Shown: piece by piece, positions 34,506-58,093 of the stretch | Layout: the number at the start of each line of letters is the position of its first letter | Position numbering within the stretch: the first letter of the stretch is position 1 | Assembly (NCBI GenBank): GCA_964452095.1 | Contig: CAYVKX010000002.1 | Coordinates: 1 to 63,456 of the forward strand | Source of the DNA: an uncultured Weeksellaceae bacterium | GTDB taxonomy: Bacteria > Bacteroidota > Bacteroidia > Flavobacteriales > BACL11 | Reading direction: 5' to 3' | DNA length: 63,456 nt | The notes under the pieces: generated by a model | Told to the model about the DNA's origin: nothing | Seen by the model: only the letters and a program-made list of their open reading frames with translations | Databases searched by the model: none | Translations under genes and position numbers: made by a program

Positions 34506-34535
34506 TTTGTATTATCCTTAAAAAGTGTATTTTTG
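34506..34535 (+). promoter_or_regulatory. Bacteroidota promoter: -33 TTTG (34506-34509) and -7 TATTTTTG (34528-34535) for cysC
   Basis: 18-nt spacer, 23 nt upstream of the cysC ATG. Confidence 0.5.
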
Positions 34536-34558
34536 CACGCTAAAAAAAACAACTAATT

Positions 34559-35170
34559 ATGGCAACAGAAAATTTACATTTCCATGAGCATAGAGTTGCT
34601 CGGGAAGAAAAAGAAAAAAGAAACCAACACAAATCAAGAGTAATTTGGTTTACAGGACTTTCAGGTTCTGGGAAATCTACAGTAGCAAATGCTACAGAAA
34701 AAGTATTGCACGATATGGGTTTGCAAACCTATATTTTGGATGGCGATAATGTAAGAATGGGACTTAATAAAGACCTTGGGTTTTCTCCAGAAGATAGAAC
34801 TGAAAACATCAGAAGAATTACAGAAGTAGCAAATTTATTTGCAGATTCTGGCTCAATTGTTCTTACTGCTTTTATCTCTCCTTACCGAGTAGATAGAGAT
34901 AAAGCAAGAGAGATTATTGGTACGGACGATTTTATTGAAGTTTTTGTAAGTGCGGATTTATCCGTTTGTGAAGATAGAGATCCAAAAGGACTTTACAAAA
35001 AAGCAAGAGCAGGAGAAATCAAAGGTTTTACTGGTATTGACGCTCCTTATGAAGCACCTTTAAACCCAGAATTGATTGTAGAAACTGATAAAAACGACAT
35101 TGAAGCATCTGCTCAAATTGTGGTTGATTATTTGGTAGAAGAAGGAATTATTAGCAAAACATTAGTATAA
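34559..35170 (+). CDS. cysC: Adenylyl-sulfate (APS) kinase
   Basis: P-loop FTGLSGSGKSTVA, LDGDNVR, FISPY and IDAPYEAP motifs. Confidence 0.93.
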   Translation: MATENLHFHEHRVAREEKEKRNQHKSRVIWFTGLSGSGKSTVANATEKVLHDMGLQTYILDGDNVRMGLNKDLGFSPEDRTENIRRITEVANLFADSGSIVLTAFISPYRVDRDKAREIIGTDDFIEVFVSADLSVCEDRDPKGLYKKARAGEIKGFTGIDAPYEAPLNPELIVETDKNDIEASAQIVVDYLVEEGIISKTLV

Positions 35171-35191
35171 ATTTTTAAATAAAAAAACGAA

Positions 35192-35668
35192 ATGGAAGTA
35201 GCAAAATGGGATGTAAAAAATCATGGTGGCAATCCTACCACTAACGAAAGTAAAAAGTATGGAATCTTTGTTGGAAGATTTCAACCTTATCACCAAGGAC
35301 ATATTTCGCTTATCATGCAAAAAATAAATGCGGGTATTCCTGCACTTATTATGGTAAGAGACATTGCTCCTGATGCAAAAAATCCTTTTACCACCGAGCA
35401 AACTGTAGAAATGATTGAAAAATATCATGCAGCAAAAGGGCATGATGTTCAGGTAATTATTATTCCAGATATCGAAAGTGTGAGTTTTGGTAGAGGAGTT
35501 GGTTATGAAATCAATGAATTTACTCCACCTGAAAATATAGGTTGGATTTCTGCAACAAAAATCAGAAATTCAATAAAAGAAGGGAATAATGATTGGAGAA
35601 CTTTGGTAGATGAATCAATCCAGCCAGATGTGGAGAAATACTTACTTACAAGTGAAGTAGAATTGTAA
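35192..35668 (+). CDS. Small HxGH-type nucleotidyltransferase (cytidylyltransferase superfamily, NadM/NMNAT-like), substrate unknown
   Basis: GIFVGRFQPYHQGH (HxGH motif) and ISATKIR (ISxTxIR motif), 158 aa. It starts 21 nt after the cysC stop. Confidence 0.65.
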   Translation: MEVAKWDVKNHGGNPTTNESKKYGIFVGRFQPYHQGHISLIMQKINAGIPALIMVRDIAPDAKNPFTTEQTVEMIEKYHAAKGHDVQVIIIPDIESVSFGRGVGYEINEFTPPENIGWISATKIRNSIKEGNNDWRTLVDESIQPDVEKYLLTSEVEL

Positions 35669-35695
35669 AATTAAGTTCAAATAATTTTTAAAAAA

Positions 35696-35720
35696 GGGGA
35701 GAATTTTCTTCCCTTTTTTT
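35696..35720 (+). terminator. Intrinsic terminator ending the cysC-nucleotidyltransferase unit
   Basis: ggggagaa-tttt-cttccc imperfect hairpin followed by ttttttt. Confidence 0.55.
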
Positions 35721-35760
35721 GTGTTTTTACTTATCAAGCCCTTAAGAGAATTAAATTTTG

Positions 35761-35768
35761 TATTTTTG
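35761..35768 (+). promoter_or_regulatory. -7 box TATTTTTG for deoC and downstream genes
   Basis: 9 nt upstream of the ATG at 35778. Confidence 0.45.
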
Positions 35769-35777
35769 GAATCTATT

Positions 35778-36677
35778 ATGAACTTACCAAACCTATCTAA
35801 AATACCAAAAATCGATAAAGTTGGAGTGTATGAAAGAGTGAATCGTTTTTGTAAAAGAAGTGTTAAAACTTCCACAAAAGAATTTGGTTTGCACCTTACG
35901 CTCAGCATGATTGATTTAACTACTTTGGAAGGAAAAGACACTCCATCAAAAGTGAAACAGCTTTGTTATAAAGCTATGCATTTGCACGATTCTATGGGGG
36001 GATTGCCAACTGTTGCGGCAGTTTGTGTGTATCCAACTTTAGTAGGGATTGCAAAAAAAGAATTAAAAGGAAGTGGAATAAATATCGCATCTGTTGCAAC
36101 TGCTTTCCCATCCGGACAATCTACTTTAGAAGTGAAAATTTCTGACACAAAATATGCTGTAAATGAAGGTGCGGATGAAGTGGATATGGTGATTTCTAGA
36201 GGAAAGTTTTTAGCTGGAGAATACAATTTTGTATTTGATGAAATAGCGGCTGTAAAAGAAGCTTGCGGAAAAGCTCATTTAAAAGTAATTTTGGAAACTG
36301 GAGAGTTGGATACTTTGGATAATGTGCGAAAAGCATCTGATATTGCGATTTATGCTGGTGCTGATTTTATCAAAACTTCTACTGGGAAAATTAGTCCGGC
36401 AGCAACAATGCCAGTTACTTTTGTAATGCTGGATGCAATAAAAGATTATCATAAAAAAACAGGAATAAAAATTGGAATGAAGCCAGCTGGAGGAATTTCT
36501 ACTGCTAAAATTGCTTTACAATATTTAGTGATGTTAAACGAAACTTTAGGGAAGGATTGGATGAATAAGGGTTTGTTTAGGTTTGGCGCGAGTTCTTTGG
36601 CGAATGATGTTTTGATGCAACTTAAAAAACAAGAAAGTGGAATTTATCAATCCTTAGATTATTTTTCAAAAGATTAA
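35778..36677 (+). CDS. deoC: Deoxyribose-phosphate aldolase, long (eukaryote-like) form
   Basis: EVDMVI, and Schiff-base lysine context ADFIKTSTGK; PAGGI. The start is moved from GTG 35721 (inside the terminator tail) to ATG 35778. Confidence 0.85.
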   Translation: MNLPNLSKIPKIDKVGVYERVNRFCKRSVKTSTKEFGLHLTLSMIDLTTLEGKDTPSKVKQLCYKAMHLHDSMGGLPTVAAVCVYPTLVGIAKKELKGSGINIASVATAFPSGQSTLEVKISDTKYAVNEGADEVDMVISRGKFLAGEYNFVFDEIAAVKEACGKAHLKVILETGELDTLDNVRKASDIAIYAGADFIKTSTGKISPAATMPVTFVMLDAIKDYHKKTGIKIGMKPAGGISTAKIALQYLVMLNETLGKDWMNKGLFRFGASSLANDVLMQLKKQESGIYQSLDYFSKD

Positions 36678-36680
36678 AAG

Positions 36681-38138
36681 ATGACTAAAATAGATTTGTC
36701 AAAAAATTGGAACTTTGCATCTGCTGCAGAAAGCACAAAGCATATAAAATTAAAGAAAAAATATGGCTTGTTTATTGATGGGGAATTTGTAAAACCACAA
36801 TCAAAAAAATATTTTGGAACCATAAATCCTGCAACAGATGAGGTAATAGCTAAAATTGCAGAAGCAAATGAAAAAGATGTAGATTTGGCAGTTAGATCTG
36901 CAAGAAAGGCATTTAAAAGTTGGTCGAAATTAGAGCCGAAAGAAAGAGGAAAATACATTTTCAGAATTGCTAGAATGATTCAAGAACGAGCAAAAGAATT
37001 TGCCGTAATTGAAAGTTTAGATGGAGGAAAACCAATCCGAGAATCTCGTGATATTGATATTCCACTTGCTGCAAATCATTTCTTTTATTATGCGGGTTGG
37101 GCAGATAAATTAGAGTATGCTTTTCCGAATAAAAAACCTCAGCCATTGGGAGTTGCAGGACAAATTATTCCTTGGAATTTTCCACTTTTAATGGCGGCTT
37201 GGAAAATAGCTCCGGCACTTGCATGTGGAAATACAGTGGTATTAAAACCTGCTGAAACCACTTCACTTACTGCACTCAAATTAGCAGAACTTATAAAAGA
37301 TAGCGGACTTCCAAAAGGAGTGGTAAATATTGTAACGGGTGCTGGAAAAACGGGTGAGGCTATTGTAAATCATTCTGATATTAATAAAATTGCTTTTACT
37401 GGTAGTACAGCTGTTGGTAAAATGATTCAAAGAAGTATTGCTGGAACTAAAAAGAAATCAACTTTAGAGCTTGGAGGAAAAGGTGCTAATATCATTTTTG
37501 AGGATGCAGCAATCGACCAAGCTGTAGAAGGAATTGTGAACGCAATTTTCTTTAATCAAGGGCATGTTTGTTGTGCGGGTTCTCGCTTGTTTGTTCAGGA
37601 AAGTGTGGCAGATACAGTAATTGAAAAATTGAAAGATAGAATTTCAACATTAATTGTAGGTAATCCTCTAGATAAAAACACAGATATTGGGGCAATTAAT
37701 TCTGCTAATCAGCTAAAAACAATTAATAAATATATTGAGATTGGGAAAAAAGAAGGAGGAGAAATTTACCAACCAAAATGCAAAATTTCCAAGAAAGGAA
37801 ATTGGTGTCCTCCAACTTTATTTTTGAATGTTTCTCAGTCGCATACTATTGTTCAAGAAGAAATTTTCGGGCCAGTTTTAGCGATTCAAACTTTCAGAAC
37901 AATTGATGAGGTAATTGAAAAAGCAAACAATACTCCCTATGGTTTATCAGCAGGAGTTTGGACTGAAAAAGGTTCTAAAATTTTCAAACTCACACAAAAA
38001 TTAAATGCGGGAGTGGTATGGGCAAATACATATAATAAGTTCGATCCCACTTCTCCTTTTGGAGGATTTAAAGAGAGTGGATTTGGAAGAGAGGGCGGTT
38101 TGCATGGATTGAAATCATATTTAAAATTTAAGTCATGA
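36681..38138 (+). CDS. NAD(P)-dependent aldehyde dehydrogenase
   Basis: IIPWNFP, catalytic Glu in LELGGKG, catalytic Cys in FFNQGHVCCAGSR, EEIFGPV. Confidence 0.9.
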   Translation: MTKIDLSKNWNFASAAESTKHIKLKKKYGLFIDGEFVKPQSKKYFGTINPATDEVIAKIAEANEKDVDLAVRSARKAFKSWSKLEPKERGKYIFRIARMIQERAKEFAVIESLDGGKPIRESRDIDIPLAANHFFYYAGWADKLEYAFPNKKPQPLGVAGQIIPWNFPLLMAAWKIAPALACGNTVVLKPAETTSLTALKLAELIKDSGLPKGVVNIVTGAGKTGEAIVNHSDINKIAFTGSTAVGKMIQRSIAGTKKKSTLELGGKGANIIFEDAAIDQAVEGIVNAIFFNQGHVCCAGSRLFVQESVADTVIEKLKDRISTLIVGNPLDKNTDIGAINSANQLKTINKYIEIGKKEGGEIYQPKCKISKKGNWCPPTLFLNVSQSHTIVQEEIFGPVLAIQTFRTIDEVIEKANNTPYGLSAGVWTEKGSKIFKLTQKLNAGVVWANTYNKFDPTSPFGGFKESGFGREGGLHGLKSYLKFKS

Positions 38139-38995
38139 GCAGAATAGATGTACTAAAAACATATAAAATTTTTATTGGAGGAAAGTTTCCAAGAACAGAA
38201 TCAGGAAGATATTTTCATGTAAAAAATGAAGATGGAGATTTGCTTTCAAATATGTGTTTGTCTTCCAGAAAAGACTTTAGAAATGCAGTAGTTTCAGCAA
38301 GAAAAGCACAAAAAGGTTGGGAGGAGACAAAAGCTCTAAATAAAGGGCAAATTCTCTATAGAATTGCAGAAATGTTGGAAGGAAGAAAATCGCAATTTAT
38401 TGCTGAATTAATGCTGACAGGAAGCACGAAATCTGAGGGAAAAAAGGAAGTAGAATTGTCAATAGATAGATTGATTTATTATGCTGGTTGGAGCGATAAA
38501 TTTTCTCCAATTTTAAGCTCAGTAAATCCTGTTTCTTCTAATCACTTTAATTTTTCTGCACCAGAGGCAGTTGGAGTAGTTTCAGTAATTGCCCAAAATG
38601 AAGCACCCCTTTTAGGCTTAGTTTCAATGATAGCACCAATTATTGTTGGTGGAAATACCTCAGTTGTTCTTTCTTCAGAAAAAAATCCTATGATTAGTAT
38701 TTCTTTTGCTGAAGTTCTGAATACTTCTGATGTGCCAGCAGGAGTGGTAAATATTATGACTGGAAAAAGGGAAGAGTTACTTTCTCATTTTGCAACTCAT
38801 ATGGATGTAAACGCCATTATTTATTGTGGAAGTAATGAAAATCAAATAAAAGAAGTAGAAGAATTGTCAGTAGAAAATTTAAAAAGAACACAAATTTATA
38901 AACGAACAAATTGGGATGTAGCATCTGCTCAATCCCCATATTTTATTGAAAAATGCCAAGAAATAAAAACCACTTGGCATCCAACACAGGTATAA
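38135..38995 (+). CDS. ALDH-like protein consisting only of the N-terminal/cofactor-binding half (no catalytic Glu or Cys region)
   Basis: Aligns by eye to residues ~25-265 of the preceding ALDH (FIGGKF vs FIDGEF; PAGVVNIMTG vs PKGVVNIVTG) and stops where ELGGK would be. ATGA start/stop overlap with the upstream gene. Confidence 0.7.
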   Translation: MSRIDVLKTYKIFIGGKFPRTESGRYFHVKNEDGDLLSNMCLSSRKDFRNAVVSARKAQKGWEETKALNKGQILYRIAEMLEGRKSQFIAELMLTGSTKSEGKKEVELSIDRLIYYAGWSDKFSPILSSVNPVSSNHFNFSAPEAVGVVSVIAQNEAPLLGLVSMIAPIIVGGNTSVVLSSEKNPMISISFAEVLNTSDVPAGVVNIMTGKREELLSHFATHMDVNAIIYCGSNENQIKEVEELSVENLKRTQIYKRTNWDVASAQSPYFIEKCQEIKTTWHPTQV

Positions 38996-39019
38996 AAAAC
39001 AAAAAGAAAAAACAAGAAA

Positions 39020-39811
39020 ATGAATTTTGAAGAACTATTAAAAACGGCAATCAATGCTTCTATAAAAGGAGGACATGCCATTATGGAAGTTTATGCTTCC
39101 GATTTTGCAGTGGAGCATAAAGAGGATAATTCTCCACTTACACTTGCAGATAAAAATTGTAATGATGTAATTGAAGCAGATTTACTTAAAACCAATATTC
39201 CGATTTTGAGTGAGGAAGGAGCAAAAACTCCATATTCTGAGAGAAAAGATTGGGAATATTCTTGGTTAGTTGACCCTTTAGATGGAACAAAAGAATTTGT
39301 AAAAAGAAATGGAGAGTTTACGGTAAACATTGCACTGATTCATAATGGAAACCCAATTATGGGAGTTATTTATGTCCCTGTAAAAGAAGAGTTGTATTTT
39401 GCTTTGGAGGGGTTAGGTTCTTATAAACTTAGCAGAAATTCAGTAATTGATAATTTGGAGAAACTGATTTCTAACTCAGATAAATTGCCGATTGATTATA
39501 ATAGAAATAATTATGTGGTGGTTGGTTCTCGTTCGCATATGTCTTCTGAAACAGAAGTATTTTTCAATCAGAAGAAAAAAGAGTATGGAAATGTAGAGGT
39601 GATGGTAGTTGGGTCATCATTAAAACTATGTATGGTAGCAGAGGGGAAGGCAGATGCTTATCCTAGATATGCCCCAACAATGGAATGGGATACAGGAGCT
39701 GGACATGCTATTGCAAAATATGCGGGTTTTTCTGTAAAACAATACGATTCAACAGAAGATGTAATTTACAATAAAGAGGATTTACTAAACCCTTGGTTTT
39801 TAGTGAAATAA
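39020..39811 (+). CDS. cysQ: 3'(2'),5'-bisphosphate nucleotidase CysQ (PAP phosphatase)
   Basis: ILSEEG, WLVDPLDGTKEF and MEWDTGAGHAI motifs of the inositol monophosphatase/CysQ family. Confidence 0.85.
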   Translation: MNFEELLKTAINASIKGGHAIMEVYASDFAVEHKEDNSPLTLADKNCNDVIEADLLKTNIPILSEEGAKTPYSERKDWEYSWLVDPLDGTKEFVKRNGEFTVNIALIHNGNPIMGVIYVPVKEELYFALEGLGSYKLSRNSVIDNLEKLISNSDKLPIDYNRNNYVVVGSRSHMSSETEVFFNQKKKEYGNVEVMVVGSSLKLCMVAEGKADAYPRYAPTMEWDTGAGHAIAKYAGFSVKQYDSTEDVIYNKEDLLNPWFLVK

Positions 39812-39815
39812 ACCC

Positions 39816-41166
39816 ATGAAAGAAAAGTTTTTAAAAGCATTAGAGGATAAAGATTTTTCTGAATTATTTAAGAAGGGAGGAGTGTCTTTTCTTATGCGTG
39901 TTGGCGGGCAAATTATGGGCTTTGTTATTACCTTTATAATTGCTCATTATTTTGGAGCAAAAGGATTGGGCGATTATGTTTTAGCAATAATTGTTTTAAG
40001 GATATTTACTTTAATAGCAAAATTGGGAATTGATACTTCTTCCATTCGGTTTATTGCTGAATATGCTGCTAAAAATCATTGGAAAGGTCTAAGAAAATAT
40101 AGAGAAAAAGTCTCATTACTTTTGCTATTTTCCACTTTATTATTTTCGATAATAATGTTTGTTTTTGCACTACCAATTGCAAATTTAGTAGGTGCAAATC
40201 CTTTTTATATTAAGCTGAATTCATTTTTTATTCTCCCAATGACATTTTTTGTTTTGAATTACCAAAGCTTAAGAGGAATGAAGAAAATAGCAGAATTTTC
40301 TTTTTTTTTATTGGATGTCAAGAGTTACTTTTTCGGCAGTAATAATTTTGATAGCTGTACAATTTTCAAGAAATGAAAACATTCCGATTCTTGCTTTTTT
40401 ACTAGGGTTAATTATTGTTTCTGTTTTGTCATATTTTGTTTTTTCTAACAAATTAGATTTAGAGGAAAGAAAAAACAATACAGCACAAAATGATTTAGGA
40501 ATAAGTTTAGGGTACAAAACAATACTTCTTGTTTCACTGCCATTATTATTGGCTCAATCAGGACAATTTATAATGGCTTGGACTGATAAACTGATGTTGG
40601 GAGGGTTTATGTCAGCAACAGAAGTAGGTGTTTATGATGTAGCATTTAAGTTATCTATGTTTGTGAATATAGCACTTACATCAGTAAATAGTATTTCCTC
40701 CCCAAAATTTGCCGAAATGTATGCTAAAAAAGATTTTAAGCGATTAGAGAAAATTGTTCATCAATCAACAAAAATTATTTTTTGGACTACAGTGCCATTA
40801 TTAGTGGTTTTCTTCTCATTTTCTTCTCAACTTTTATCATTATTTGGGGATGAGTTTGCTTCAGGAATGCAAGTGTTCATGATTTTGTGTTCAGCAAGAA
40901 TGGTTAGTGCTTTTTCTGGACCAGCAGGAAATTTGTTGCAAATGACTGGCAGACAAGTAATTTTCATGAAAGTGTTATTTATTGGAGCAATAATAAATTT
41001 TGGGCTAAACTTTATTTTAATCCCAAAATTTGGCATTGAAGGAGCTGCTTATGCTAGTATTTTTAGCATTGTTTTTTGGAACCTTACAATGGTTTATTTT
41101 GTAAAAAAAGAGTTTGGATTTTTAACAATATATATTCCTTTTTCTATAAAAAATAATGACAAATAA
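39816..41166 (+). pseudogene. wzx: Wzx-type (MOP superfamily) polysaccharide flippase split by a 1-nt frameshift in a T9 run (ORFs 39816-40376 and 40315-41166)
   Basis: The two adjacent ORFs (186 + 283 aa) together make a ~450-aa polytopic protein with a Polysacc_synt_C-like end (FGIEGAAYASIFSIVFWNL). The frames differ by +1 and both are open across ttttcttttttttta (40296-40310). Confidence 0.7.
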
Positions 41167-42052
41167 TTTACCAAATTTATTAATTGTTGGTGCAGCAAAA
41201 AGTGGGACTACTTCATTACACAACTATTTGAATCAACATTCTGATATTTTTATGTGCTCACCAAAAGAGCCACATTTTTTAATAAATAATGATATTGGAG
41301 TAAAGAGGATCCCCAAAGGTATTTTGAATTTTGAAGATTATAAATTGCTTTTTTCTGGAGTAGAAGATGTGAAATATAAAGGAGAATCAAGTGTGATGTA
41401 TTTGCAGTTTCCTGAGATTACTATTAAGAATATCAAAAGATATTTATCTAAGGATGTGAAAATTATTATTATGTTAAGAAATCCTGTAGAGCGTGCTTAT
41501 TCTGGGTTTCAACATGTGAAAAGGTATAACACACAAGAAAATTGCAAGGATTTTAAAACCGCTTGGGATATATCAGAACAGAGGTATTTTGAAAAAAAAG
41601 AAATAACTCCAGCCACAAGATATAAAGAGTTAGGTCTGTATCATAAACAAGTAAAATCTTTTTTAGAAGGACTGAAAAATGTTCATATTATTATTTATGA
41701 TGATTATTTATCAGATTTTCAAAAGGAAATGAATAGAGTGTTTGATTTTTTGGGAATAGAAAAAATGGAAGTAAATGCCAAGCAAAAACATATGGTTGGG
41801 GGGTGGCAATGGGAAAATGAGAAAATAAAAAACGTAATGATGAAGAAAAACCAATTTAAATCTTTTTTGAAGATTCTTATCCCATTCAAGGGAATCAGAA
41901 AAAAAATAAGAGGTAAGTTGCAAGAGAATAATACAATAAGAGTAGCTAAGATAAATGATAAAGATAAAGAAATGCTGAAAGAATTTTACAGAGAAGATGT
42001 AAAAAAACTTTCAGGATTATTAGGTAGGGATTTAAATTTTTGGACACAATGA
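41156..42052 (+). CDS. PAPS-dependent sulfotransferase (Sulfotransfer_1-like)
   Basis: 5'-PSB loop PNLLIVGAAKSGTTSL, KEPHFL, 3'-PB IIMLRNPVERAYSGF. Confidence 0.8.
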   Translation: MTNNLPNLLIVGAAKSGTTSLHNYLNQHSDIFMCSPKEPHFLINNDIGVKRIPKGILNFEDYKLLFSGVEDVKYKGESSVMYLQFPEITIKNIKRYLSKDVKIIIMLRNPVERAYSGFQHVKRYNTQENCKDFKTAWDISEQRYFEKKEITPATRYKELGLYHKQVKSFLEGLKNVHIIIYDDYLSDFQKEMNRVFDFLGIEKMEVNAKQKHMVGGWQWENEKIKNVMMKKNQFKSFLKILIPFKGIRKKIRGKLQENNTIRVAKINDKDKEMLKEFYREDVKKLSGLLGRDLNFWTQ

Positions 42053-42933
42053 GTTTGCCAAATTTTATGTGTATAGGAGCAGCAAAAAGCGGTACAACCA
42101 CTTTGTATGATATTTTGCGCCAACATCCTGATGTATTTATCCCTGCATTTAAGGAACCACATTTTTTTGATATTCCTGCTAATTATAAGAATGGAATTGC
42201 ATGGTATGAAAGAACTTATTTTAAATCAGTAAAAAATGAGAAATGTATTGCCGACTTCACTCCTTCTTATTTTTTTGAAGCAAATACAGCAAAAAGAATC
42301 TATAATGACTTAGGTGAAGATGTAAAGTTTATAGTCATTTTAAGAAATCCTGTTGATAGAGCTTATTCTCATTATTTACATTCTTTGCGAGATGAAAGGG
42401 AAGAATTGATATTTTCGGATGCAATAGAAATAGAAAAGCAAAGGTTGAGTAATTACAAGAAAAACAATGATGTCTTAAACTATTTGAGACATTCTTACAT
42501 TTCACAAAGTATGTATGGAAGCATGTTACAATTTTATTTAAAGGATTTTCCAATTGAGAATTTTTTAATTATTCATTTTGAAAAAGAATTTATTGCTCAA
42601 AGAAAACAAACCATAAAAAAGGTGCTTAATTTTTTGGACTTAGATGATGAAGTTGAACTCAAAATTGATTTGAAAAGTAATCCTGCAAGTAAAGCTCGTT
42701 CAAAAACAATAAAAAGAATGATGCAAAAAACAGGATGGTGGAGAACTATTCTTAAAATTATTTTGCCTTCACAAATAAGACAAATAATGAAAAACAGAAT
42801 TCAAAGAGCAAATATTAGTAGTTTTACCCCAGAACCCATACAAGAAGAAGAACGAAAAAGAATCTTTTTAAATTATTTTTCAGAAGATATAAAAATGTTA
42901 GAAAAATTATTAAATAAGAAAATGAATTGGTAG
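42049..42933 (+). CDS. PAPS-dependent sulfotransferase (Sulfotransfer_1-like), paralog of the preceding gene
   Basis: PNFMCIGAAKSGTTTL, KEPHFFD, VILRNPVDRAYSHY. The ATG at 42049 overlaps the upstream stop (ATGA); the track start at 42040 is TTG. Confidence 0.8.
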   Translation: MSLPNFMCIGAAKSGTTTLYDILRQHPDVFIPAFKEPHFFDIPANYKNGIAWYERTYFKSVKNEKCIADFTPSYFFEANTAKRIYNDLGEDVKFIVILRNPVDRAYSHYLHSLRDEREELIFSDAIEIEKQRLSNYKKNNDVLNYLRHSYISQSMYGSMLQFYLKDFPIENFLIIHFEKEFIAQRKQTIKKVLNFLDLDDEVELKIDLKSNPASKARSKTIKRMMQKTGWWRTILKIILPSQIRQIMKNRIQRANISSFTPEPIQEEERKRIFLNYFSEDIKMLEKLLNKKMNW

Positions 42934-50470: not shown

Positions 50471-51937
50471 CTAAAATTGAAAATAAATAAAATTATTAAC
50501 TCTAGAGTAAGGGGCTAAAAATAAGATGCCAAAAATTAGGATGTAATAGACTAACCATCTTACCCATCTCTTTTTAGATTCTAATTTCACCCATACATCT
50601 CCACTTCTTTCATAAAGATTGTATAATTCCATAAACAGAATTAGCGCAAAATTTATTTTCATATCCATTTTCTGCACCCCCAATCCTCTTAACTTCAATT
50701 GCATTTTTCCAAAATCGGTGTAATCTCCAATATCAGAAAACATATTTCCAATTACATAATATGCATCTGAGATATTGTTTGCTCTAAAGAATATCCAAGC
50801 GAAAACAGCTAATGCAAAAGTAAAGCCAACTTGATATATTTTATGAATGTAAGTGTTGTTTAATTTGAATAAATCAAGAATATATTGTTTAGGTTTTCTT
50901 AGCCCGATAGCCATAATTAAATAAGTTCCATGCAAAGCCCCCCAAGCCAAAAAAGTCCAATTTGCTCCATGCCAAAACCCACTAACAAGGAAAGTAATAA
51001 ACAAATTATAGTACCACCGCCATTTCACCACTCTATTCCCACCAAGAGGAATGTATAAATAATCACGAAACCAAGTAGAAAGCGATATATGCCACCTTTG
51101 CCAAAATTCCGAAATTGATTTGGAGAAATAAGGGCGTTTGAAATTATCCATTAATTCAAACCCCATTACTCTTGCTGAGCCAATTGCGATATCAGAATAT
51201 CCAGAAAAATCGCAATAAATTTGGAAAGTAAAAAATATGGTTGCGATTACTAATGAGAAGCCAGAATAATTATCCAAATTATTATAGACTCCATCTACTA
51301 CAATAGCTAATCTATCTGCAATTACTACTTTTTTAAAGAACCCCCAAAGCATTTGTTGTAAGCCGAATTTGACTCTATCATAGCTGAATTTATGCTCTAC
51401 AAAAAATTGAGGCAAAAGATGGTTTGACCTCTCAATTGGGCCTGCAACTAGTTGAGGGAAAAAGGAAACGTATACCGCAAAAATTCCTAAATGATTTTGT
51501 ACAGGTGTTTTCCCATTATACACATCAATGGTGTAACTTAAGGTTTGAAAAGTGTAAAATGAAATTCCAACAGGGAGCAAAACATCAAATGCAGGAACGC
51601 CATAAAAAACATTAAAATTATCAAATAATGCCTGAACATTCGTGTTTACAAAATTGAAGTATTTAAAGCCAAACAAAATCCCAAGATTAGAAATCAAGCT
51701 AATTAAAAGCCATTTTTTTCTTTTTGCTTTTTCCGTTAATTCTGCCATCTTTTTAGCTACAAAATAATCGATAAGAGTAGAGGCAATTATTAAAACTATA
51801 TACTCCACCTTCCAGCACATATAAAAATAATAGGAAGCTATTAATAATAGAATCCATCTTCTTTTTTGAGGAAGCAAAAAGAATATGCTAACGACTATAG
51901 GGAAGAAAATTAAAAATTGAAGGGAATTAAATAGCAT
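50471..51937 (-). CDS. MBOAT-family O-acyltransferase (AlgI/DltB-like)
   Basis: Polytopic; FWQRWHISLSTWFRDYLYIPLGGNR and the conserved His in SGFWHGANW. Confidence 0.88.
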   Translation of the reverse strand: MLFNSLQFLIFFPIVVSIFFLLPQKRRWILLLIASYYFYMCWKVEYIVLIIASTLIDYFVAKKMAELTEKAKRKKWLLISLISNLGILFGFKYFNFVNTNVQALFDNFNVFYGVPAFDVLLPVGISFYTFQTLSYTIDVYNGKTPVQNHLGIFAVYVSFFPQLVAGPIERSNHLLPQFFVEHKFSYDRVKFGLQQMLWGFFKKVVIADRLAIVVDGVYNNLDNYSGFSLVIATIFFTFQIYCDFSGYSDIAIGSARVMGFELMDNFKRPYFSKSISEFWQRWHISLSTWFRDYLYIPLGGNRVVKWRWYYNLFITFLVSGFWHGANWTFLAWGALHGTYLIMAIGLRKPKQYILDLFKLNNTYIHKIYQVGFTFALAVFAWIFFRANNISDAYYVIGNMFSDIGDYTDFGKMQLKLRGLGVQKMDMKINFALILFMELYNLYERSGDVWVKLESKKRWVRWLVYYILIFGILFLAPYSRVNNFIYFQF

Positions 51938-52017: not shown

Positions 52018-52025
52018 TATCTTTG
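52018..52025 (+). promoter_or_regulatory. -7 box TATCTTTG for the GT4-gmhA-gmhB/gmd-wecA unit
   Basis: TAnnTTTG match, 11 nt upstream of the ATG at 52037. Confidence 0.45.
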
Positions 52026-52036
52026 TCTGCTAAATT

Positions 52037-53179
52037 ATGAATAGAAAAGTAGCAATAATTGATCCTCTTGGTAGCTTTGGAAGTTCGCACCATTTTTATT
52101 TATTTGGTCAATCAGAAGGGTTGATAAATTCAGATGTAGAGGTGTGTTTGTACACTAATAAAGAAACAGATAATCCAAACATAAAAGGGTTAAGGTTTTA
52201 TCAATTTTATGGATTCCTTTTTAGTTCAAATAAATTCTTTAGCACTTTAAAGTACATTAAAGGAAGTGCGTTATCCATCTTCCATGCAAAATTTTTTGGT
52301 AGCAAATTTTTTCATTTTCATGTTTTTCGCATGAGAATAAATATGTTGTTTAATCTAATTTTAGTTAAGTTATTGTTTGGGAAAGTAGTTTTAACAGTAC
52401 ATGATGTTGGAGCTTTTGCAAATAATAATGACGCATCATTTTACGCTAAATGGATTTACAAACTTGCTGATTTAGTGCTAACTCATAATGAGTTTAGTAA
52501 AGAGGAAATAATTAAGGTAACACCAATCCCTGAGCAAAAGATTCACATTGTTCCTCATGGAAATTACACGCCATTTATTACTATTCAGAAAGATAAAAAT
52601 CATTCAAGAGCAAAATTAAATTTACCAAAAGACAAAACAATTTTACTCTTCTTTGGTATGATAAAGAAAGTAAAGGGATTAGAAATTTTACTTGAATCTT
52701 TTAAGAAAGTAATCGATAAAAATCCTGATACTATTTTATTGATTGCTGGAAAACCTTGGGAAAATGATTTTTCCTTATATCAGAAAATAATTGATAAAAA
52801 TAAGCTTTCAGAAAATATAATTTTACACACAAAATTTATTCTCCATGAGGATGTAGAACATTATTATTGCGCATCAGATTTAGTGGTTTTGCCTTATAAA
52901 AAGATTTATCAAAGTGGGGTGCTGATCATGACACTCAGTTATGAAAAACCAGCATTAGTATCTGATTTATCACCTCTAAAAGAAATAATTTCTGATAATG
53001 AAAATGGTTTTTTGTTTCAATCAGAAAATGCGAAAGATTTAGCAGAAAAACTAATTAAAATTTTAGCAAATAAAGAGGGCTTAGAAAGAGTCAGATTAAA
53101 AGGAACAGAACTCATAAATACAAAATATGGCTGGGATGAAATTGGCCGACTCACAAAGTTAGCTTATGAAACTCTTTAA
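52037..53179 (+). CDS. Family 4 (GT-B) glycosyltransferase
   Basis: C-terminal E-x7-E-like region YEKPALVSDLSPLKEIISDNENGFLF; about 380 aa. Confidence 0.75.
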   Translation: MNRKVAIIDPLGSFGSSHHFYLFGQSEGLINSDVEVCLYTNKETDNPNIKGLRFYQFYGFLFSSNKFFSTLKYIKGSALSIFHAKFFGSKFFHFHVFRMRINMLFNLILVKLLFGKVVLTVHDVGAFANNNDASFYAKWIYKLADLVLTHNEFSKEEIIKVTPIPEQKIHIVPHGNYTPFITIQKDKNHSRAKLNLPKDKTILLFFGMIKKVKGLEILLESFKKVIDKNPDTILLIAGKPWENDFSLYQKIIDKNKLSENIILHTKFILHEDVEHYYCASDLVVLPYKKIYQSGVLIMTLSYEKPALVSDLSPLKEIISDNENGFLFQSENAKDLAEKLIKILANKEGLERVRLKGTELINTKYGWDEIGRLTKLAYETL

Positions 53180-53206
53180 TTTTGTATTTTAGCAAAAACT
53201 AAAAAC

Positions 53207-53788
53207 ATGAAAAGTAGAATAAATAAATCTATAGCAAGTTCGCTTGAAATTTTTAATAGCATTTTGCAAGATGATAAGTTGCAAAGCAATATTGAGAAAA
53301 TTGCTAAGGAAAGCATCAAAGCTTTTAAGAATGATAAAAAGATGCTTTTTTGTGGAAATGGCGGAAGTGCCTCTGATGCTCAGCATATTGCAGCCGAACT
53401 CAGTGGTAGGTTTTATACTGACCGACCTCCACTTTATGCAGAAGCTTTGCATGTTAATTCCTCCTTTATGACGGCTGTTGCCAATGATTATGGCTATGAA
53501 GAAACTTACGCAAGAATGGTAGAAGCATCTGGTAGAAAAGGGGATGTTTTAGTAGGAATTTCTACTTCTGGGAATTCTCCAAATGTAGTAAAAGCAATGC
53601 AAAAGGCAAAAGATATTGGGATGACAACTGTCGGTTTTACAGGAAATAGTGGAGGGGAAATGAAAGCAATTTGCGATATTATGATTAGGATTCCTTCTGA
53701 TGATACGCCAAGAATTCAAGAAGCACATATTTTAATTGGGCATATTATTTGTCAGCTTATTGAAGAAGAAATATTTCCTAATGCCTGA
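53207..53788 (+). CDS. gmhA: Sedoheptulose-7-phosphate isomerase GmhA (SIS domain)
   Basis: [35 protein letters not shown]. Confidence 0.88.
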
Positions 53789-55358
53789 TTTTGACACACT
53801 TTTCTTAGATAGAGATGGGGTGATAAACAAAAAATTAGAAGGTCGGTATGTCCGAAATTCAGAGGAATTTGAGTTTATGCCAAAAGCCAAACAAGCTATT
53901 GCGGAACTCTCAAAAATATTTAAAAGAATTATTGTTGTAACTAATCAACAAGGAATTGGAAAGGGGATTATGAGTGAAAATGATTTGAATACTCTACATC
54001 AATTTATGATTTTGGAAATAGAAAAATCAAAAGGGAAAATTGATAAAATTTATTTCTGCCCTCATTTAGAAAAAAAGAGATGTAATTGCAGAAAACCAAA
54101 AACGGGAATGATTGAAAAAGCTATTATTGATTTTCCTAAGATAAATACTCAAAATTCTTATTTAGTTGGCGACTCAGATTCTGATATCCAAGCTGGAAAA
54201 GATGCGAAATTAAACACCATAAAAGTAGATAATATCTTCACTTTACATGATTGGGTGCAGCAAATTACGGCCTATAAAAATATTTATGAGTATTTTTACC
54301 CCTCAAAACAAGTAAACATTTCAATGAGGAAGGCAATTATTACAGGTATAACCGGGCAAGATGGTGCGTATTTAGCTCAAATTTTATTAGCTAAAAATTA
54401 TAAAGTTTATGGTGCGTACAGAAGGACTAGTTCCCAAAACTTTTGGAGAATAGAGTATTTAGGAATAAAGGAAAATCCGAACTTAATGCTTATTGAACAC
54501 GATTTGATTGATGCGGCTAGCACCATCAGAATGGTTTCTGAAATCAGGCCTGATGAAATTTATAATTTAGCTGCTCAAAGTTTTGTGCATGTATCATTCG
54601 ATCAGCCATTGGCTACTTCTATGATAACTGGAATTGGTGTTACTCATCTTTTGGAAGCAATCAGAATTATAGATAAAAACATCAAATTTTACCAAGCATC
54701 TACTTCCGAACTTTATGGAAAGGTGCAAGAAGTTCCGCAAAAAGAAACAACTTCTTTTTATCCGAGAAGCCCTTATGGAATAGCAAAACTTTATGCACAT
54801 TGGATGACTCAAAATTACAGAGAATCCTATGGTATTTTTGCTTGTAGCGGCATCCTTTTTAATCATGAATCTCCACTAAGAGGATTGGAATTTGTAACTA
54901 GAAAAATTACAGATGGAGTAGCTAGAATAAATTCTGGAGAAGGAAATTGTATTAAATTAGGCAATTTAGATGCTAGTAGAGATTGGGGATATGCACCAGA
55001 ATTTGTGGAAGGAATGTACAGAATGATGCAACATGATACTGCCGATACTTTTGTTCTAGCAACAAATAAAGCAAGCACTGTAAGACAATTTACAGAAATG
55101 GCTTTTAGTGTTATTGGTACAGAAATAGAATGGGATGGAGTAGGTGTAAAAGAAAAAGGAATTGATAAAAAAACCGGAAAAGTAGTAGTAAAAGTGGATG
55201 AAAAATATTTTCGATTGGCAGAGGTAGATGCTCTCATTGGAAATCCTGCAAAAGCCGAAAAATTACTTGGATGGAAACCTAAAATAACAGTGGAGGAACT
55301 TTGCAAAAAAATGGTAGAATCAGATATTGAAGGATTAAAAAACAACTCAAAAAGATAA
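53781..55358 (+). CDS. Single ORF fusing a GmhB-like HAD phosphatase (53781-~54290) to a GDP-mannose 4,6-dehydratase-like SDR (54324-55358)
   Basis: HAD motifs [42 protein letters not shown], then [46 protein letters not shown]. No stop codon lies between the two parts. The ATG overlaps the gmhA stop (ATGCCTGA). Confidence 0.8.
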
Positions 55359-55365
55359 GCGAAAA

Positions 55366-56430
55366 GTGAATCAAATTATCATAAATATATTTTTTGGTTT
55401 TTTCACATCCTTTCTTATTACTTATTTAATAATACCAAAAATAATTCAGTTTGCTGAAAAAAGGCGACTATACGATAATCCTGGAGTGCGCGCCTCACAT
55501 GAGAAAAGTATTCCCGTTTTTGGAGGGATTGGCATTTTTTCTGGAGTAAGTTTTGCCCTTCTTTTTTGGGGAATTGGCATGGAGGAAATAGGAAATATTC
55601 AGTTTTTGCTTTCAGCAATTATTGTAATATTTTTTGTTGGAATTATTGATGATCTATTATCACTTACCCCAAGTAAGAAAATGATGGGACAAATTATAGC
55701 AATTCTTATAGTTATTTTCTTAGCGGAAGTTAAAATTACGGATATGCATGGAGTATGGGGTGTATTTAATCTCCCTTCTTGGATAGGTTTGCTTTTTACA
55801 ATTTTTACAGTTATTGTAATTACAAATGCTTACAATTTGATTGACGGAATAGATGGTTTGGCAGCTGGAATAGGTATAATAGCAGCCATAACTTTTGGGC
55901 TTCTAGCTTTTTTCGCTTCTCATTTTGAAATGGCAATATTAGCATTTTCGCTAGCTGGAGCTTTGTTTGCATATATCAGATATAATTTTTATCCAGCTAA
56001 AATTTTTATGGGAGATACGGGTTCATTAGTGGTTGGTTTTATTCTTGCAATTTTGGCTATTGACCTCATCAAAACTGGTGTTATTGTTAATGAAATAACC
56101 TTTATAAATAAAGGACCTTTATTAGCAATTTCTATTTTGTCTATTCCACTTTTTGATTCTTTAAGGGTTTTTGTAGTGAGGGTTTTAAAAGGAAAATCTC
56201 CTCTTTATGCCGATAGAAATCATATTCATCATGCACTGCTTGATTTAGGGTTTTCACATAAGCAAACCGCTATAATAATTTATATTGCTAGTATTATTTT
56301 AATACTTATATCCTTACTTATACTAGATATTAATATCAATTACTCGATAAGTATTTTAGCAGTTATTGCTTATAGCACAATGTCCATTCCATTTATTATT
56401 CTTAAAAGAAGAAATAAAAATAATGAATAA
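55366..56430 (+). CDS. wecA: Polyprenyl-phosphate HexNAc-1-phosphate transferase (WecA/MraY family initiating transferase)
   Basis: NAYNLIDGIDGLA, FMGDTGS, polytopic; GTG start. Confidence 0.85.
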   Translation: MNQIIINIFFGFFTSFLITYLIIPKIIQFAEKRRLYDNPGVRASHEKSIPVFGGIGIFSGVSFALLFWGIGMEEIGNIQFLLSAIIVIFFVGIIDDLLSLTPSKKMMGQIIAILIVIFLAEVKITDMHGVWGVFNLPSWIGLLFTIFTVIVITNAYNLIDGIDGLAAGIGIIAAITFGLLAFFASHFEMAILAFSLAGALFAYIRYNFYPAKIFMGDTGSLVVGFILAILAIDLIKTGVIVNEITFINKGPLLAISILSIPLFDSLRVFVVRVLKGKSPLYADRNHIHHALLDLGFSHKQTAIIIYIASIILILISLLILDININYSISILAVIAYSTMSIPFIILKRRNKNNE

Positions 56431-58093
56431 ATTTTTTCTTCTCATTTTACTGCTGTTGGCTTTTTTATTTACCAATGCTCAGCATACTAATTTGCCTTTG
56501 GGTAAAGATGCACATTTGATTTTGGAGCAAGAAATTAATAATTCTATAGCACACACTTCCTTTCAGCCACTAATCAAATCAACTGTAAATGAAAAAGTAA
56601 ATGCCGATTCTTTGATAAATGAAATATTTCCAAATAAATGGACAAATTGGTACAAACGGAAATTATTTTCTGAACATTTAGTAATCCTAAAAGGAGATGA
56701 CTATAAAGTTACCGCTTCACCAATTATTGATTTTACCAAAGGGAAAGAAACAGTAAGAAACACAAATATTTTTACTAATACAAGAGGGTTTATTATTGAA
56801 GGAAATCTAGGAGAATCTGTTTCTTTTTACTCTTCTTTTTCTGAAAACCAAGCTATATTCCCAAACTATTTGGACTCTAATATTAGAAGAAATAGGGTAG
56901 TTCCCGGACAAGGATTTGCTCGAGAGTTTAAAGAAACAGGATTTGATTACGCAATGGCATCTGGCTATGTGGCGATAAAGCCAGCCAAGCATTTTGTAGT
57001 TCAGTTTGGGCATGGGAAACATTTTATAGGTGATGGTTACCGTTCTCTTTTACTTTCTGATAATGCTTTTAATTATCCTTTTTTAAGAATTCAAACTATT
57101 TTTTGGAGGGTACAATACACCAATTTGTATGCAGAATTTCAGGATATAAATTATTTTAAAAATAATGGAATAGATAATTACGACCAAATGGGCTATGCTA
57201 AAAAATATATGTCAGCACATTACTTGAGTACGAAAGTAAATTCTAATCTTACGATTAGCATTTTTGAATCTGTAATTTGGAGAGCAAATCATGCACCAGG
57301 AAACAGAGGTTTTGATGCAAATTATTTGAATCCTATTTCACTTTTTCGACCTTTAGAGTTCTCCATTAATTCCCCCGATAATGTGTTGGTTGGAATCAAT
57401 ACAAAATATCAATTGCCATATAAATCTTATCTGTACGGACAATTTGCATTGGATGAATTTAGTATCAATGATTTAAGACAAAGAAATGGATTTTGGGGAA
57501 ACAAATTTGCCTATCAGTTAGGAGCAAAAATGTATGATGTTTTTGGTTTGCAGAACTTAACTTTGCAAACCGAGTACAATTTAGTTCGCCCTTATACTTA
57601 CGCTCATCATAATCCTGTGCAGAATTATGCGCATTACAATCAGCCACTTGCACATCCTTTAGGAGCAAATTTTTCTGAAAAATTATTGATTATAAATTAT
57701 AGAAAACAAAGGTGGACGGCAAGAGCACAATTGATGATTGCAAAATATGGCGGGAAAATCATAGGTGACCAAACCTCTTACGGAAATGATGTGTATATGT
57801 CTACAGGAGATTTTGCGGAGGAATCAGGAGTGCAGCATGTAGGAATTGGAAGACCAGACAGAGATAATGATGGGGTGTTAGATGAATTCGGTATGGAAAT
57901 GTATCAGGGGAATCTAACGGATGTAAAGTATTTTCAACTGAATTTTGGCTATATTATTAATCCGGCAACAAATTTTAAAATTGACATTGGGATTAGAAAA
58001 CGAGATTTAACCAATGAGTTGGCTGAGGTAAACACCTTACTTTATACCATTAGTTTGAAAACAGATTTGTTTAATCATTATTACGATTTTTAG
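56423..58093 (+). CDS. Outer-membrane beta-barrel, Wzi/RemB-like capsule-assembly family candidate
   Basis: Signal peptide MNKFFLLILLLLAFLFTNAQ, GHGKHFIGDGYRSLLLSDNAFNYPFLRI resembling the Wzi LSxNA motif, C-terminal aromatic ...HYYDF. The start is moved to the ATG at 56423. Confidence 0.5.
   Translation: MNKFFLLILLLLAFLFTNAQHTNLPLGKDAHLILEQEINNSIAHTSFQPLIKSTVNEKVNADSLINEIFPNKWTNWYKRKLFSEHLVILKGDDYKVTASPIIDFTKGKETVRNTNIFTNTRGFIIEGNLGESVSFYSSFSENQAIFPNYLDSNIRRNRVVPGQGFAREFKETGFDYAMASGYVAIKPAKHFVVQFGHGKHFIGDGYRSLLLSDNAFNYPFLRIQTIFWRVQYTNLYAEFQDINYFKNNGIDNYDQMGYAKKYMSAHYLSTKVNSNLTISIFESVIWRANHAPGNRGFDANYLNPISLFRPLEFSINSPDNVLVGINTKYQLPYKSYLYGQFALDEFSINDLRQRNGFWGNKFAYQLGAKMYDVFGLQNLTLQTEYNLVRPYTYAHHNPVQNYAHYNQPLAHPLGANFSEKLLIINYRKQRWTARAQLMIAKYGGKIIGDQTSYGNDVYMSTGDFAEESGVQHVGIGRPDRDNDGVLDEFGMEMYQGNLTDVKYFQLNFGYIINPATNFKIDIGIRKRDLTNELAEVNTLLYTISLKTDLFNHYYDF

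Follow-up and report, generated by a model that had tools for sequence, protein, structure and literature searches.

A 23.6-kb gene cluster at 34.5-58.1 kb of a 63,456-nucleotide stretch of DNA from an uncultured Weeksellaceae bacterium (contig CAYVKX010000002.1 of assembly GCA_964452095.1; the whole stretch is called the window here) probably encodes a pathway that builds a heavily sulfated surface glycan on undecaprenyl phosphate. Judged on its genes, we put the probability of this reading at about three in four. The original prediction had described a sulfated, O-acylated polysaccharide of the Wzx/Wzy type. A sulfated glycan that is assembled on a lipid carrier, flipped by Wzx and optionally O-acylated agrees with our results, but the product may be a polymer or a ligated oligosaccharide: an O-antigen, a capsule or a conserved oligosaccharide ligated to lipopolysaccharide (LPS) or protein. 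Open reading frame (ORF) listing combined with Pfam and NCBIfam scans found that the 23.6-kb region is a genuine gene cluster lying between TonB (33800-34456) and tsaB (58094-58762). The predicted genes were recovered in their places, with two exceptions, a Wzi-like barrel (no family match) and the flippase gene wzx (split).

The evidence for sulfation comes from six genes, which comprise four sulfotransferases and two enzymes that make 3'-phosphoadenosine-5'-phosphosulfate (PAPS) from adenosine-5'-phosphosulfate (APS) and dispose of its by-product 3'-phosphoadenosine-5'-phosphate (PAP). The motifs listed are the 5'-phosphosulfate-binding (5'-PSB) and 3'-phosphate-binding (3'-PB) sites, followed by the KE motif where there is one:

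34559-35170, plus strand: cysC, APS kinase (APS to PAPS); PF01583 2e-71, TIGR00455 288 bits (cutoff 139), PRK03846 296 bits.
39020-39811, plus strand: cysQ, 3'(2'),5'-bisphosphate nucleotidase (PAP to AMP); TIGR01331 260 bits (cutoff 229).
41156-42052, plus strand: sulfotransferase 1 (ST1), heparan-sulfate 3-OST/NDST-like; PF00685 1.8e-17, PDB 3rnl 9e-34; GAAKSGTTSL, LRNPVERAYS, KEPHF.
42040-42933, plus strand: sulfotransferase 2 (ST2), heparan-sulfate 3-OST-like; PF00685 1.4e-17, 3-OST-5 1e-19; GAAKSGTTTL, LRNPVDRAYS, KEPHFF.
46771-47787, plus strand: sulfotransferase 3 (ST3), Sulfotransfer_3, CurM/TPST-like; PF13469 3e-27; GSGRSGTTMM, VRDSRDVLLS.
47784-48650, plus strand: sulfotransferase 4 (ST4), heparan-sulfate NDST/3-OST-like; PF00685 4e-25, PDB 3rnl 3e-46, NDST 6e-14; GAPKAGTTSL, LRNPIDRAFS, KETDFF.

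All four sulfotransferases exceed the Pfam gathering cutoff, and cysC and cysQ both score above the curated NCBI equivalog cutoffs. The PAPS-binding residues, whose loss had been named as refuting the sulfation hypothesis, are present, with intact 5'-PSB and 3'-PB motifs in 4/4 proteins. The KEPHF, KEPHFF and KETDFF motifs of ST1, ST2 and ST4 align with the KE.HFF region of 3rnl, the Glu of which we take to be the catalytic base of heparan-sulfate sulfotransferases. The nearest relatives of ST3 are the CurM/OLS and TPST sulfotransferases. The P-loops of the four proteins lie at residues 3-20 and no signal peptide precedes them, which suggests that they are cytoplasmic. PAPS genes and sulfotransferases within a polysaccharide cluster are regarded as a mark of sulfated polysaccharide synthesis (PMC11641403).

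Interleaved with the sulfotransferases, or a few genes downstream of them, are genes expected for the assembly of a glycan on a lipid carrier:

39816-41166, plus strand: wzx flippase, MOP family; PF01943, PF13440 and MatE on both halves; frameshifted in the window.
42927-44207, plus strand: Wzy_C-domain membrane protein; PF04932 5.7e-10, 39.6 bits (cutoff 31.7).
44248-45381, plus strand: nucleotide-sugar 4-epimerase-like short-chain dehydrogenase/reductase (SDR) with an internal insertion; PF01370 5e-52 in two stretches.
48638-49546, plus strand: family 2 glycosyltransferase (GT2); PF00535 4e-22.
52037-53179, plus strand: family 4 glycosyltransferase (GT4), head of a third plus-strand unit; PF00534 6e-26.
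55366-56430, plus strand: WecA/MraY-family initiating transferase for N-acetylhexosamine-1-phosphate (HexNAc-1-P); PF00953 2.5e-42, TIGR02380 161 bits, under its cutoff.

The SDR protein is closest in the PDB to 4zrm (4e-44), WbpP (5e-36) and WbgU (3e-34), which places it in the GalE/WbpP/WbgU group. Together with the WecA-type initiator, this suggests that the repeat contains HexNAc.

The same locus also encodes a secreted protein that served as the query in our genome comparison:

45378-46778, plus strand: secreted clan GH-A fold protein, 466 aa, similar to glycoside hydrolase families GH79 and GH51; signal peptide, AlphaFold2 and Foldseek.

This protein has no Pfam or NCBIfam match above noise and belongs to no described glycoside hydrolase (GH) family. 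Its AlphaFold model, computed with 33 homologs, has a mean pLDDT of 91.4, and Foldseek matched it to GH79 beta-glucuronidase (E 4e-18) and also to GH51 arabinofuranosidases and human heparanase, with TM scores of ~0.63. Residues E154, E158 and E289 (in WITEWN) are invariant, and the acid/base residue is either E154 or E158. The fold thus bears out the earlier description of the protein as secreted and GH-like, and the model identifies it as a predicted secreted clan GH-A hydrolase of an unclassified family. This family has >300 members without a Pfam domain, found only in metagenomes and in Flavobacteriales metagenome-assembled genomes (MAGs). The enzyme likely trims or releases polymer.

We scanned one genome of each GTDB species for the 466-aa protein, by pattern and by tblastn, and then mapped the window proteins onto the loci recovered. 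The protein was found in 52 species representatives, all of them MAGs or single amplified genomes of uncultured marine Flavobacteriales, and in every locus with enough flank the cluster sits between gcvH-TonB and tsaB-DEAD helicase. The synteny survey thus revealed the same locus at the same chromosomal site in 52 species, an arrangement far beyond chance. Gene content was counted over the 42 loci that span cysQ to gmhA. cysQ, wzx, the Wzy_C gene, the GH-fold gene, GT4 and GmhA occur in 42/42, and the SDR and GT2 genes in 41/42. Sulfotransferases number three (5 loci), four (27 loci) or five (10 loci). Optional cassettes are the membrane-bound O-acyltransferase (MBOAT) with its SGNH-motif partner (15 of the 42), a hexapeptide acyltransferase (8), Gmd (7) and a pair of aldehyde dehydrogenase (ALDH) genes (13). 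Protein identity across these loci is 40-60%. Although its G+C is low (0.28 within the locus versus 0.33-0.35 outside), the cluster, which had been termed an island, is thus no recent acquisition: the locus is old, and its core is fixed across the clade.

The remaining genes of the cluster encode candidate enzymes for O-acylation and sugar supply, a probable surface protein and a set of catabolic enzymes:

49541-50470, minus strand: membrane-anchored SGNH-motif protein, 309 aa, partner of the MBOAT; recognised by motifs only.
50471-51937, minus strand: MBOAT O-acyltransferase, DltB/AlgI-like; PF03062 3.7e-27, TIGR04091 145 bits, under its cutoff.
53207-53788, plus strand: GmhA, sedoheptulose-7-phosphate isomerase; PF13580, TIGR00441 207.5 bits, just under its cutoff of 209.45.
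53781-54278, plus strand: GmhB-like HAD phosphatase; PRK08942 150 bits, under its cutoff, and TIGR01656 above its cutoff.
54324-55358, plus strand: Gmd, GDP-mannose 4,6-dehydratase; TIGR01472 460 bits (cutoff 415).
56420-58093, plus strand: secreted protein of 557 aa ending in YYDF; signal peptide and C-terminal Phe.
35778-36677, plus strand: deoC, deoxyribose-phosphate aldolase, which opens the long operon; TIGR00126 193 bits (cutoff 117).
36681-38138, plus strand: full-length ALDH; PF00171 8.5e-168.
38135-38995, plus strand: N-terminal (NAD-binding) half of an ALDH, with no catalytic domain; covers 14-233 of the 461 positions of the PF00171 profile.

The SGNH-like designation of the 309-aa protein is putative and comes from its motifs: GDS, G, N and DxxH (S76, G126, N130 and D282/H285) are invariant in 18 homologs, but Pfam at E up to 10, PDB profile searches and family models all returned no match. 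The 557-aa protein is likely an outer-membrane beta-barrel, as judged from its signal peptide and from its YYDF C-terminus, an ending characteristic of such barrels. Pfam (E up to 10), NCBIfam and PDB searches returned no match for it, and only one of its 18 homologs touches the Wzi family (PF14052, 1.6e-6), which leaves its earlier label of Wzi-like weak. By NCBIfam a true deoxyribose-phosphate aldolase, deoC is the leading gene of the operon in all loci with their left end inside the fetched flank. A gene without a Pfam match in sister loci, which we had provisionally set apart as U249, is no separate family and is a short DeoC with the motifs KTSTGY and KASGGI. The ALDH half-gene directly follows the full ALDH gene and travels with it; its identity across 13 species is 69-81%. 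Together with deoC, the two ALDH genes may form a co-transcribed module for deoxyribose catabolism.

These parts can be arranged into a pathway. The WecA-type transferase would load HexNAc-1-P on the lipid carrier, the GalE/WbpP-like epimerase and GmhA, GmhB and Gmd would supply special sugars, and GT4 and GT2 would extend a short repeat of about three sugars. The four cytoplasmic, PAPS-dependent sulfotransferases may add up to four sulfates per unit, with cysC making the PAPS and cysQ clearing the inhibitory PAP. Wzx would then flip the sulfated unit across the membrane, where the Wzy_C protein is predicted to polymerise it or ligate it to an acceptor and the MBOAT and SGNH-motif pair to O-acylate the glycan in the periplasm. 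The secreted GH79/GH51-fold enzyme could trim or release chains, and surface anchoring of the product may fall to the beta-barrel protein.

Several points weigh against this pathway. Its functional claims rest on sequence, fold and synteny, and all carrier genomes are uncultured. In the Pfam search of the large ORFs, the window has neither Sat (PF01747) nor CysD/CysN, and Wza, Wzc and Wzz were likewise not found in its 63 kb, though these may lie elsewhere. Of the predicted Wzx/Wzy-type machinery, the initiating transferase and wzx were found, but Wza and Wzc were not, and the Wzy_C protein may be a ligase; its PF04932 match cannot tell a polymerase from a ligase. The wzx gene is frameshifted in the window sequence. 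The heptose kinase and nucleotidyltransferase that should accompany GmhA and GmhB are missing from the locus, and no mechanism ties deoC and the two ALDH genes to glycan synthesis. Finally, O-antigen and capsule loci do not usually show a gene content as conserved as that found here.

With known enzymes alone, the pathway has a gap at the source of APS. The cluster had been predicted to contain a complete local sulfation cycle, and cysC and cysQ are indeed present, but the window has no ATP sulfurylase of a known type. Directly downstream of cysC we found a small adenylyltransferase-like gene:

35192-35668, plus strand: 158-aa HIGH-motif nucleotidyltransferase (NTase), similar to nicotinamide mononucleotide adenylyltransferase (NMNAT) and phosphopantetheine adenylyltransferase (PPAT); PF01467; 21 nt from cysC.

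In the APS-producing step of the pathway, our preferred source is this adjacent NTase and the other is an ATP sulfurylase elsewhere in the genome. The NTase is a candidate non-orthologous ATP sulfurylase that would adenylylate sulfate and pass APS to CysC, a proposal based on sequence to which we give slightly less than even odds. If so, the NTase and CysC would form a minimal candidate PAPS synthase for sulfation and not for sulfur assimilation. A serious competitor, which we hold at somewhat poorer odds, is that the NTase belongs to the ordinary NMN adenylyltransferases of the NadM type, or is some other adenylyltransferase that has nothing to do with sulfate, and that APS is provided by a Sat or CysDN elsewhere; a lone cysC could be enough if the cell assimilates sulfate via APS reductase.

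The fold itself speaks for the NMNAT alternative. Structure modelling (pLDDT 87.5) and a fold search predicted an NMNAT/PPAT-like fold, and the nearest solved structures are archaeal NMNAT and PPAT. The protein does keep two motifs expected of an ATP sulfurylase, the HxxH-type nucleotidyltransferase motif as GRFQPYHQGH and the ISxT..R phosphate-binding motif as ISATKIR (family pattern GRxQPxHxGH and ISATxIR), in which H37, S120 and R125 are invariant or nearly so. It falls in neither PF01747 nor PF01507, with PF01467 and sub-threshold NMNAT models as its sole matches, and a PDB profile search returned NMNAT and PPAT and no Sat. Homology to Sat was thus rejected by both profile and fold searches. 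Weak hints of Sat are confined to relatives: two fusions of the NTase domain to CysC (NT-CysC) align to a Sat/CysC model past the kinase domain, and there is one PF01747 match at 1.6e-4. Against an ordinary NMNAT, the window protein lacks ~27 residues that are found in archaeal NMNAT. A role as HldC/RfaE-II, the heptose-1-phosphate adenylyltransferase that would complete the GmhA/GmhB pathway, was also rejected, as no rfaE model matches and the NTase is absent from most gmhA/gmhB loci and tracks cysC, not the heptose genes.

Genomic context argues for a role in sulfate activation. The left end of the locus exists in four forms, counting the truncated ones. In 20 loci, cysN-cysD-cysC lie on the opposite strand, followed by deoC-cysQ, and by their sequences these genes provide a full PAPS pathway dedicated to the locus. 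In seven loci, including the window, a plus-strand cysC and then the NTase directly follow TonB; the cysC genes of this form share 74-84% identity with one another and ~50% with the other cysC type. The left end is cut off in nine loci and partly visible in three more (L015 with the NTase, L019 and L053 with a partial minus-strand cysC). In the syntenic loci the NTase always accompanies a plus-strand cysC, and no locus has both the NTase and cysDN: across 27 loci they are alternatives at the same site, which counts against an unrelated NMNAT. Five loci, however, have no PAPS genes at their left end, so PAPS can come from outside the locus, as the NMNAT alternative supposes.

Relatives of the NTase are frequently joined to APS kinase. 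We searched 1.84 billion representative proteins exhaustively with HMMER and recovered 1098 relatives, and 43 of the best 150 carry an APS-kinase domain, in both domain orders (32 CysC-NT and 11 NT-CysC). Among the proteins of at least 230 aa in these best 150, the fusion is found in 41/49. The kinase domains of three fusions that were tested in NCBIfam score 183-257 bits, well above the apsK cutoff of 139, and in BLAST comparisons of the fusions the kinase domains are mostly 40-55% identical to the window CysC. In Omnitrophota and Woesearchaeota MAGs, fusions of this type carry no annotation beyond adenylyl-sulfate kinase. We inspected the surroundings of three fusions, and in two of them sulfotransferases lie at most 5 kb away and no sulfurylase of a known type is present. 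In an Omnitrophica MAG (GCA_028711865.1; L063, 8001-12158) and in a second locus (L064, 8001-13721), the NT-CysC gene lies a few genes from sulfotransferases, with no known ATP sulfurylase within 8 kb; the fusion in L064 is also near GT4 genes and a Wzy_C gene.

A similar association is seen in metagenomes, from which we collected 80 loci (L065-L144) with NTase relatives using a tight NT alignment. A same-strand, adjacent cysC is present in 34 of the 40 loci that have at least 800 nt on both sides, none of the 80 has a cysD, cysN or Sat motif, and sulfotransferases are the commonest Pfam family among the 149 neighbouring ORFs. These associations count against an ordinary NMNAT. Other neighbours include carbamoyltransferases, 2-oxoglutarate-Fe(II) oxygenases, UvdE, SegE GIY-YIG endonucleases and peptide deformylase, and the neighbourhoods contain hints that some cysC-NTase modules are on viral genomes.

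Distant homologs in cultured phages point the other way. Xylella phage Bacata (L145, 3587-4327) and further Xylella, Xanthomonas and Stenotrophomonas phages encode a kinase-NTase fusion beside a COG3236/NADAR gene, annotated as adenylylsulfate kinase or kinase. Such phage relatives, at 30-37% identity, adjoin the NADAR gene or are NadM-Nudix proteins and may serve NAD-related chemistry instead; the wider NTase family thus shades into NAD metabolism. A literature search found no description of an NT-type ATP sulfurylase, which is not proof of absence. In its broadest form, our proposal is that the NTase and its widespread APS-kinase-fused relatives in Omnitrophota, DPANN archaea and marine metagenomes are a third type of ATP sulfurylase, with no orthology to the two known types; separately, abundant uncultured marine Flavobacteriales would be coated with a clade-wide conserved glycan of glycosaminoglycan (GAG)-like charge density. 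We put the chances of this broad reading a shade under one in two. If the NTase is a sulfurylase, many genomes that have been scored as incapable of making PAPS would need re-annotation. It is a small, soluble candidate for a sulfate-activating enzyme that can be tested directly.

A different question is what becomes of the glycan after flipping. It is unlikely, though worth keeping in view, that the product is a conserved sulfated oligosaccharide that is moved once to the LPS core or to envelope proteins by the Wzy_C protein, which would work as a WaaL-type ligase or a PglL-type oligosaccharyltransferase, similar to the general O-glycosylation of Bacteroidota. PF04932 is named the O-antigen ligase family and also takes in WaaL ligases and PglL-type oligosaccharyltransferases, the score of 39.6 bits is modest, and no NCBIfam model, polymerase models included, matches the protein. 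The missing Wza, Wzc and Wzz are in line with this alternative, and a content conserved over 42 loci is more readily explained by a conserved core glycan than by an O-antigen or capsule, which are hypervariable; this unusual conservation is among the reasons for which we keep a ligase or oligosaccharyltransferase open. The secreted endo-type GH-fold enzyme and the possible Wzi-like barrel, in contrast, fit a polymer better. Export genes may also lie elsewhere, as does the outer-membrane polysaccharide export (OPX) gene for synechan (PMC8205485).

The state of the genes in the window raises the further and rather improbable alternative that the pathway is switched off or decaying in this organism. 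A poly-T run near 40301 is longer by one T, which splits wzx into 39816-40376 and 40315-41166, and an A/T difference at 40278 also falls in the split stretch (40278-40311). Further downstream, an A at 54276 in place of the T of TAA removes the gmhB stop codon in the window only and fuses GmhB and Gmd into a single 540-aa ORF. In one conspecific contig (L001), the ALDH half-gene carries a nonsense change (position 38661). Evidence against decay comes from two conspecific contigs (L001 and L002) from independent metagenome assemblies, 99.98% identical to the window, in which wzx is intact (449 aa) and the gmhB stop is in place, and all other genes are intact. Errors in homopolymer length are a common assembly artefact, and the wzx split may be due to such an error in assembly or else to a homopolymer variant that switches the gene on and off.

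Least probable is that the sulfotransferases merely lie near a glycan locus and act on a lipid, a metabolite or protein tyrosine: ST3 does resemble CurM/OLS and TPST enzymes, and metabolite-sulfating sulfotransferases of Bacteroides are known (PMC13449962), but the four genes are interleaved with wzx, the Wzy_C gene, the GH-fold gene and GT2 through 4-13-nt overlaps, their order is kept in 42 loci, and 3/4 resemble heparan-sulfate sulfotransferases down to the KE..FF motif with its putative catalytic base.

Transcription of the sulfated-glycan locus was examined through its gene spacing, terminators and promoter motifs. Tight packing from deoC to GT2 had been noted before and was confirmed, including the 40-nt gap between the Wzy_C gene and the SDR gene, but the 13 genes have 12 junctions and not 13; at 11 of the 12, the genes overlap by 4-13 nt or are 3-24 nt apart. 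Two terminator-like hairpins flank the cysC-NTase pair in the window:

34464-34485, plus strand: terminator-like hairpin after TonB, a 9-bp stem then a T-run; left boundary of the locus.
35690-35719, plus strand: strong terminator-like hairpin, a 13-bp stem then a T-run; closes the cysC-NTase pair.

No strong terminator was found between deoC and GT2. A sigma-70 promoter scan was uninformative, with counts equal to those in shuffled sequences, and we used the Bacteroidota -7 box TAnnTTTG for promoter calls in its place. The plus strand of the window has 60 copies of the box, which lies at most 60 nt upstream of 4/22 plus-strand gene starts checked in the locus (tsaB included), namely cysC (31 nt, box at 34528), deoC (17 nt), GT4 (19 nt) and gmhA; a further copy is on the minus strand upstream of the MBOAT gene. 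From the box placement and the lack of a strong deoC-GT2 terminator, the locus probably has four transcription units: cysC-NTase; deoC through GT2; the minus-strand MBOAT-SGNH pair; and GT4 through the barrel-protein gene, possibly together with tsaB, which the barrel-protein gene abuts with zero gap.

The flanks of the window hold housekeeping and type IX secretion system (T9SS) genes, among them nusA, infB, alternative complex III, ruvB and queG. A 2386-aa ORF at 26170-33330 has a counterpart with PF14349 (SprA_N) in sister locus L008. Rfam and tRNA scans of the window found none. Directly after the alternative complex III genes is a 394-aa ORF (14373-15557) with no Pfam match even at E up to 10, and on the minus strand at 60667-62793 is a T9SS-secreted protein with two PLD-like domains, DUF5689, fn3 and a Por_Secre_tail.

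Marine Bacteroidota have been studied as consumers of algal sulfated polysaccharides. If our reading of the locus is true, >50 species of planktonic Flavobacteriales, with 3-5 sulfotransferases per approximately three glycosyltransferases, are producers of sulfated glycans too, and abundant uncultured marine Flavobacteriales would be a bacterial source of sulfated glycans in seawater. This would bear on the origin of such glycans in seawater and on the recognition of these cells by phages and grazers. The locus would also be a source of new carbohydrate sulfotransferases for GAG-like polymers.

Loci for sulfated polysaccharides are, as a kind, already known. The original prediction had called them rare in bacteria, a claim that is dated: sulfated capsular or exopolysaccharide loci with PAPS genes have been published for Synechocystis (PMC8205485), Vibrio (PMC11641403), Cobetia (PMC11766843) and Pontiella, the last with sulfated GAG-like exopolymers (PMC7356697). 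Our literature search found no described sulfated-glycan locus in Bacteroidota, which again is not proof of absence, and in one MAG survey the MAGs from Bacteroidetes were reported to lack sulfotransferase genes (PMC9723792).

The model of Wzx/Wzy assembly with cytoplasmic modification that we apply here is taken from synechan, the product of the xss cluster of Synechocystis sp. PCC 6803 (PMC8205485). Both loci have sulfotransferases among glycosyltransferases, wzx and wzy, and the outer-membrane export gene of xss also lies outside its cluster (PMC8205485). However, xss has two sulfotransferases per eight glycosyltransferases, a polysaccharide copolymerase (PCP) gene, the regulators XssQRS and no PAPS genes, and is located on a plasmid (PMC8205485). 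The Flavobacteriales locus has four sulfotransferases per three glycosyltransferases and contains cysC and cysQ (plus cysDN or the NTase), the GH79/51-fold enzyme and the MBOAT pair; it has no PCP gene or regulator, and is chromosomal and conserved across a Bacteroidota clade. In Vibrio sp. KMM 8419 and Cobetia marina KMM 1449, PAPS genes (a second cysDNC copy) and sulfotransferases similarly share a surface-polysaccharide locus (PMC11641403, PMC11766843). The Vibrio capsule, from a gammaproteobacterium, is exported by an ABC (Kps) system encoded in an 80-gene region and its structure is solved (PMC11641403), whereas the locus described here is Wzx-dependent, compact, includes cysQ and is known from its genes alone.

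The individual proteins have more distant counterparts. ST1, ST2 and ST4 share a PKxGTT-type 5'-PSB, KE(x)xFF and the 3'-PB RNPxDRxxS with animal 3-OST and NDST and with bacterial 3rnl, with E-values down to 1e-19 (animal enzymes) and of 1e-34 to 1e-46 (3rnl). They differ from the animal enzymes in being soluble, cytoplasmic bacterial proteins of ~290 aa with low identity to them. The 466-aa protein has, like GH79 beta-glucuronidase/heparanase and GH51, a predicted (beta/alpha)8 barrel and beta-sandwich with Glu residues on or near beta-4 and beta-7, yet identity is just 10-14% and there is no Pfam or CAZy-type sequence match. The MBOAT and SGNH-motif proteins may be comparable to the O-acylation pairs AlgI/AlgJ-X and PatA/PatB-like proteins. 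The NTase with CysC resembles Sat-CysC/PAPS synthase, and PPAT with dephospho-CoA kinase, as an adenylyltransferase paired or fused with a 3'-OH kinase, and the NT-CysC domain order mirrors that of Sat-CysC. Unlike Sat, the NT domain has ~130-160 aa, an NMNAT/PPAT-like fold and no PUA-like domain, and the window protein has no PF01747 match. Set against the known systems, the new features are the phylum, hosts that are planktonic and uncultured, conservation throughout the clade, the excess of sulfotransferases over glycosyltransferases, the inclusion of cysQ, the GH79/51-fold enzyme and the alternative sulfate-activation cassette.

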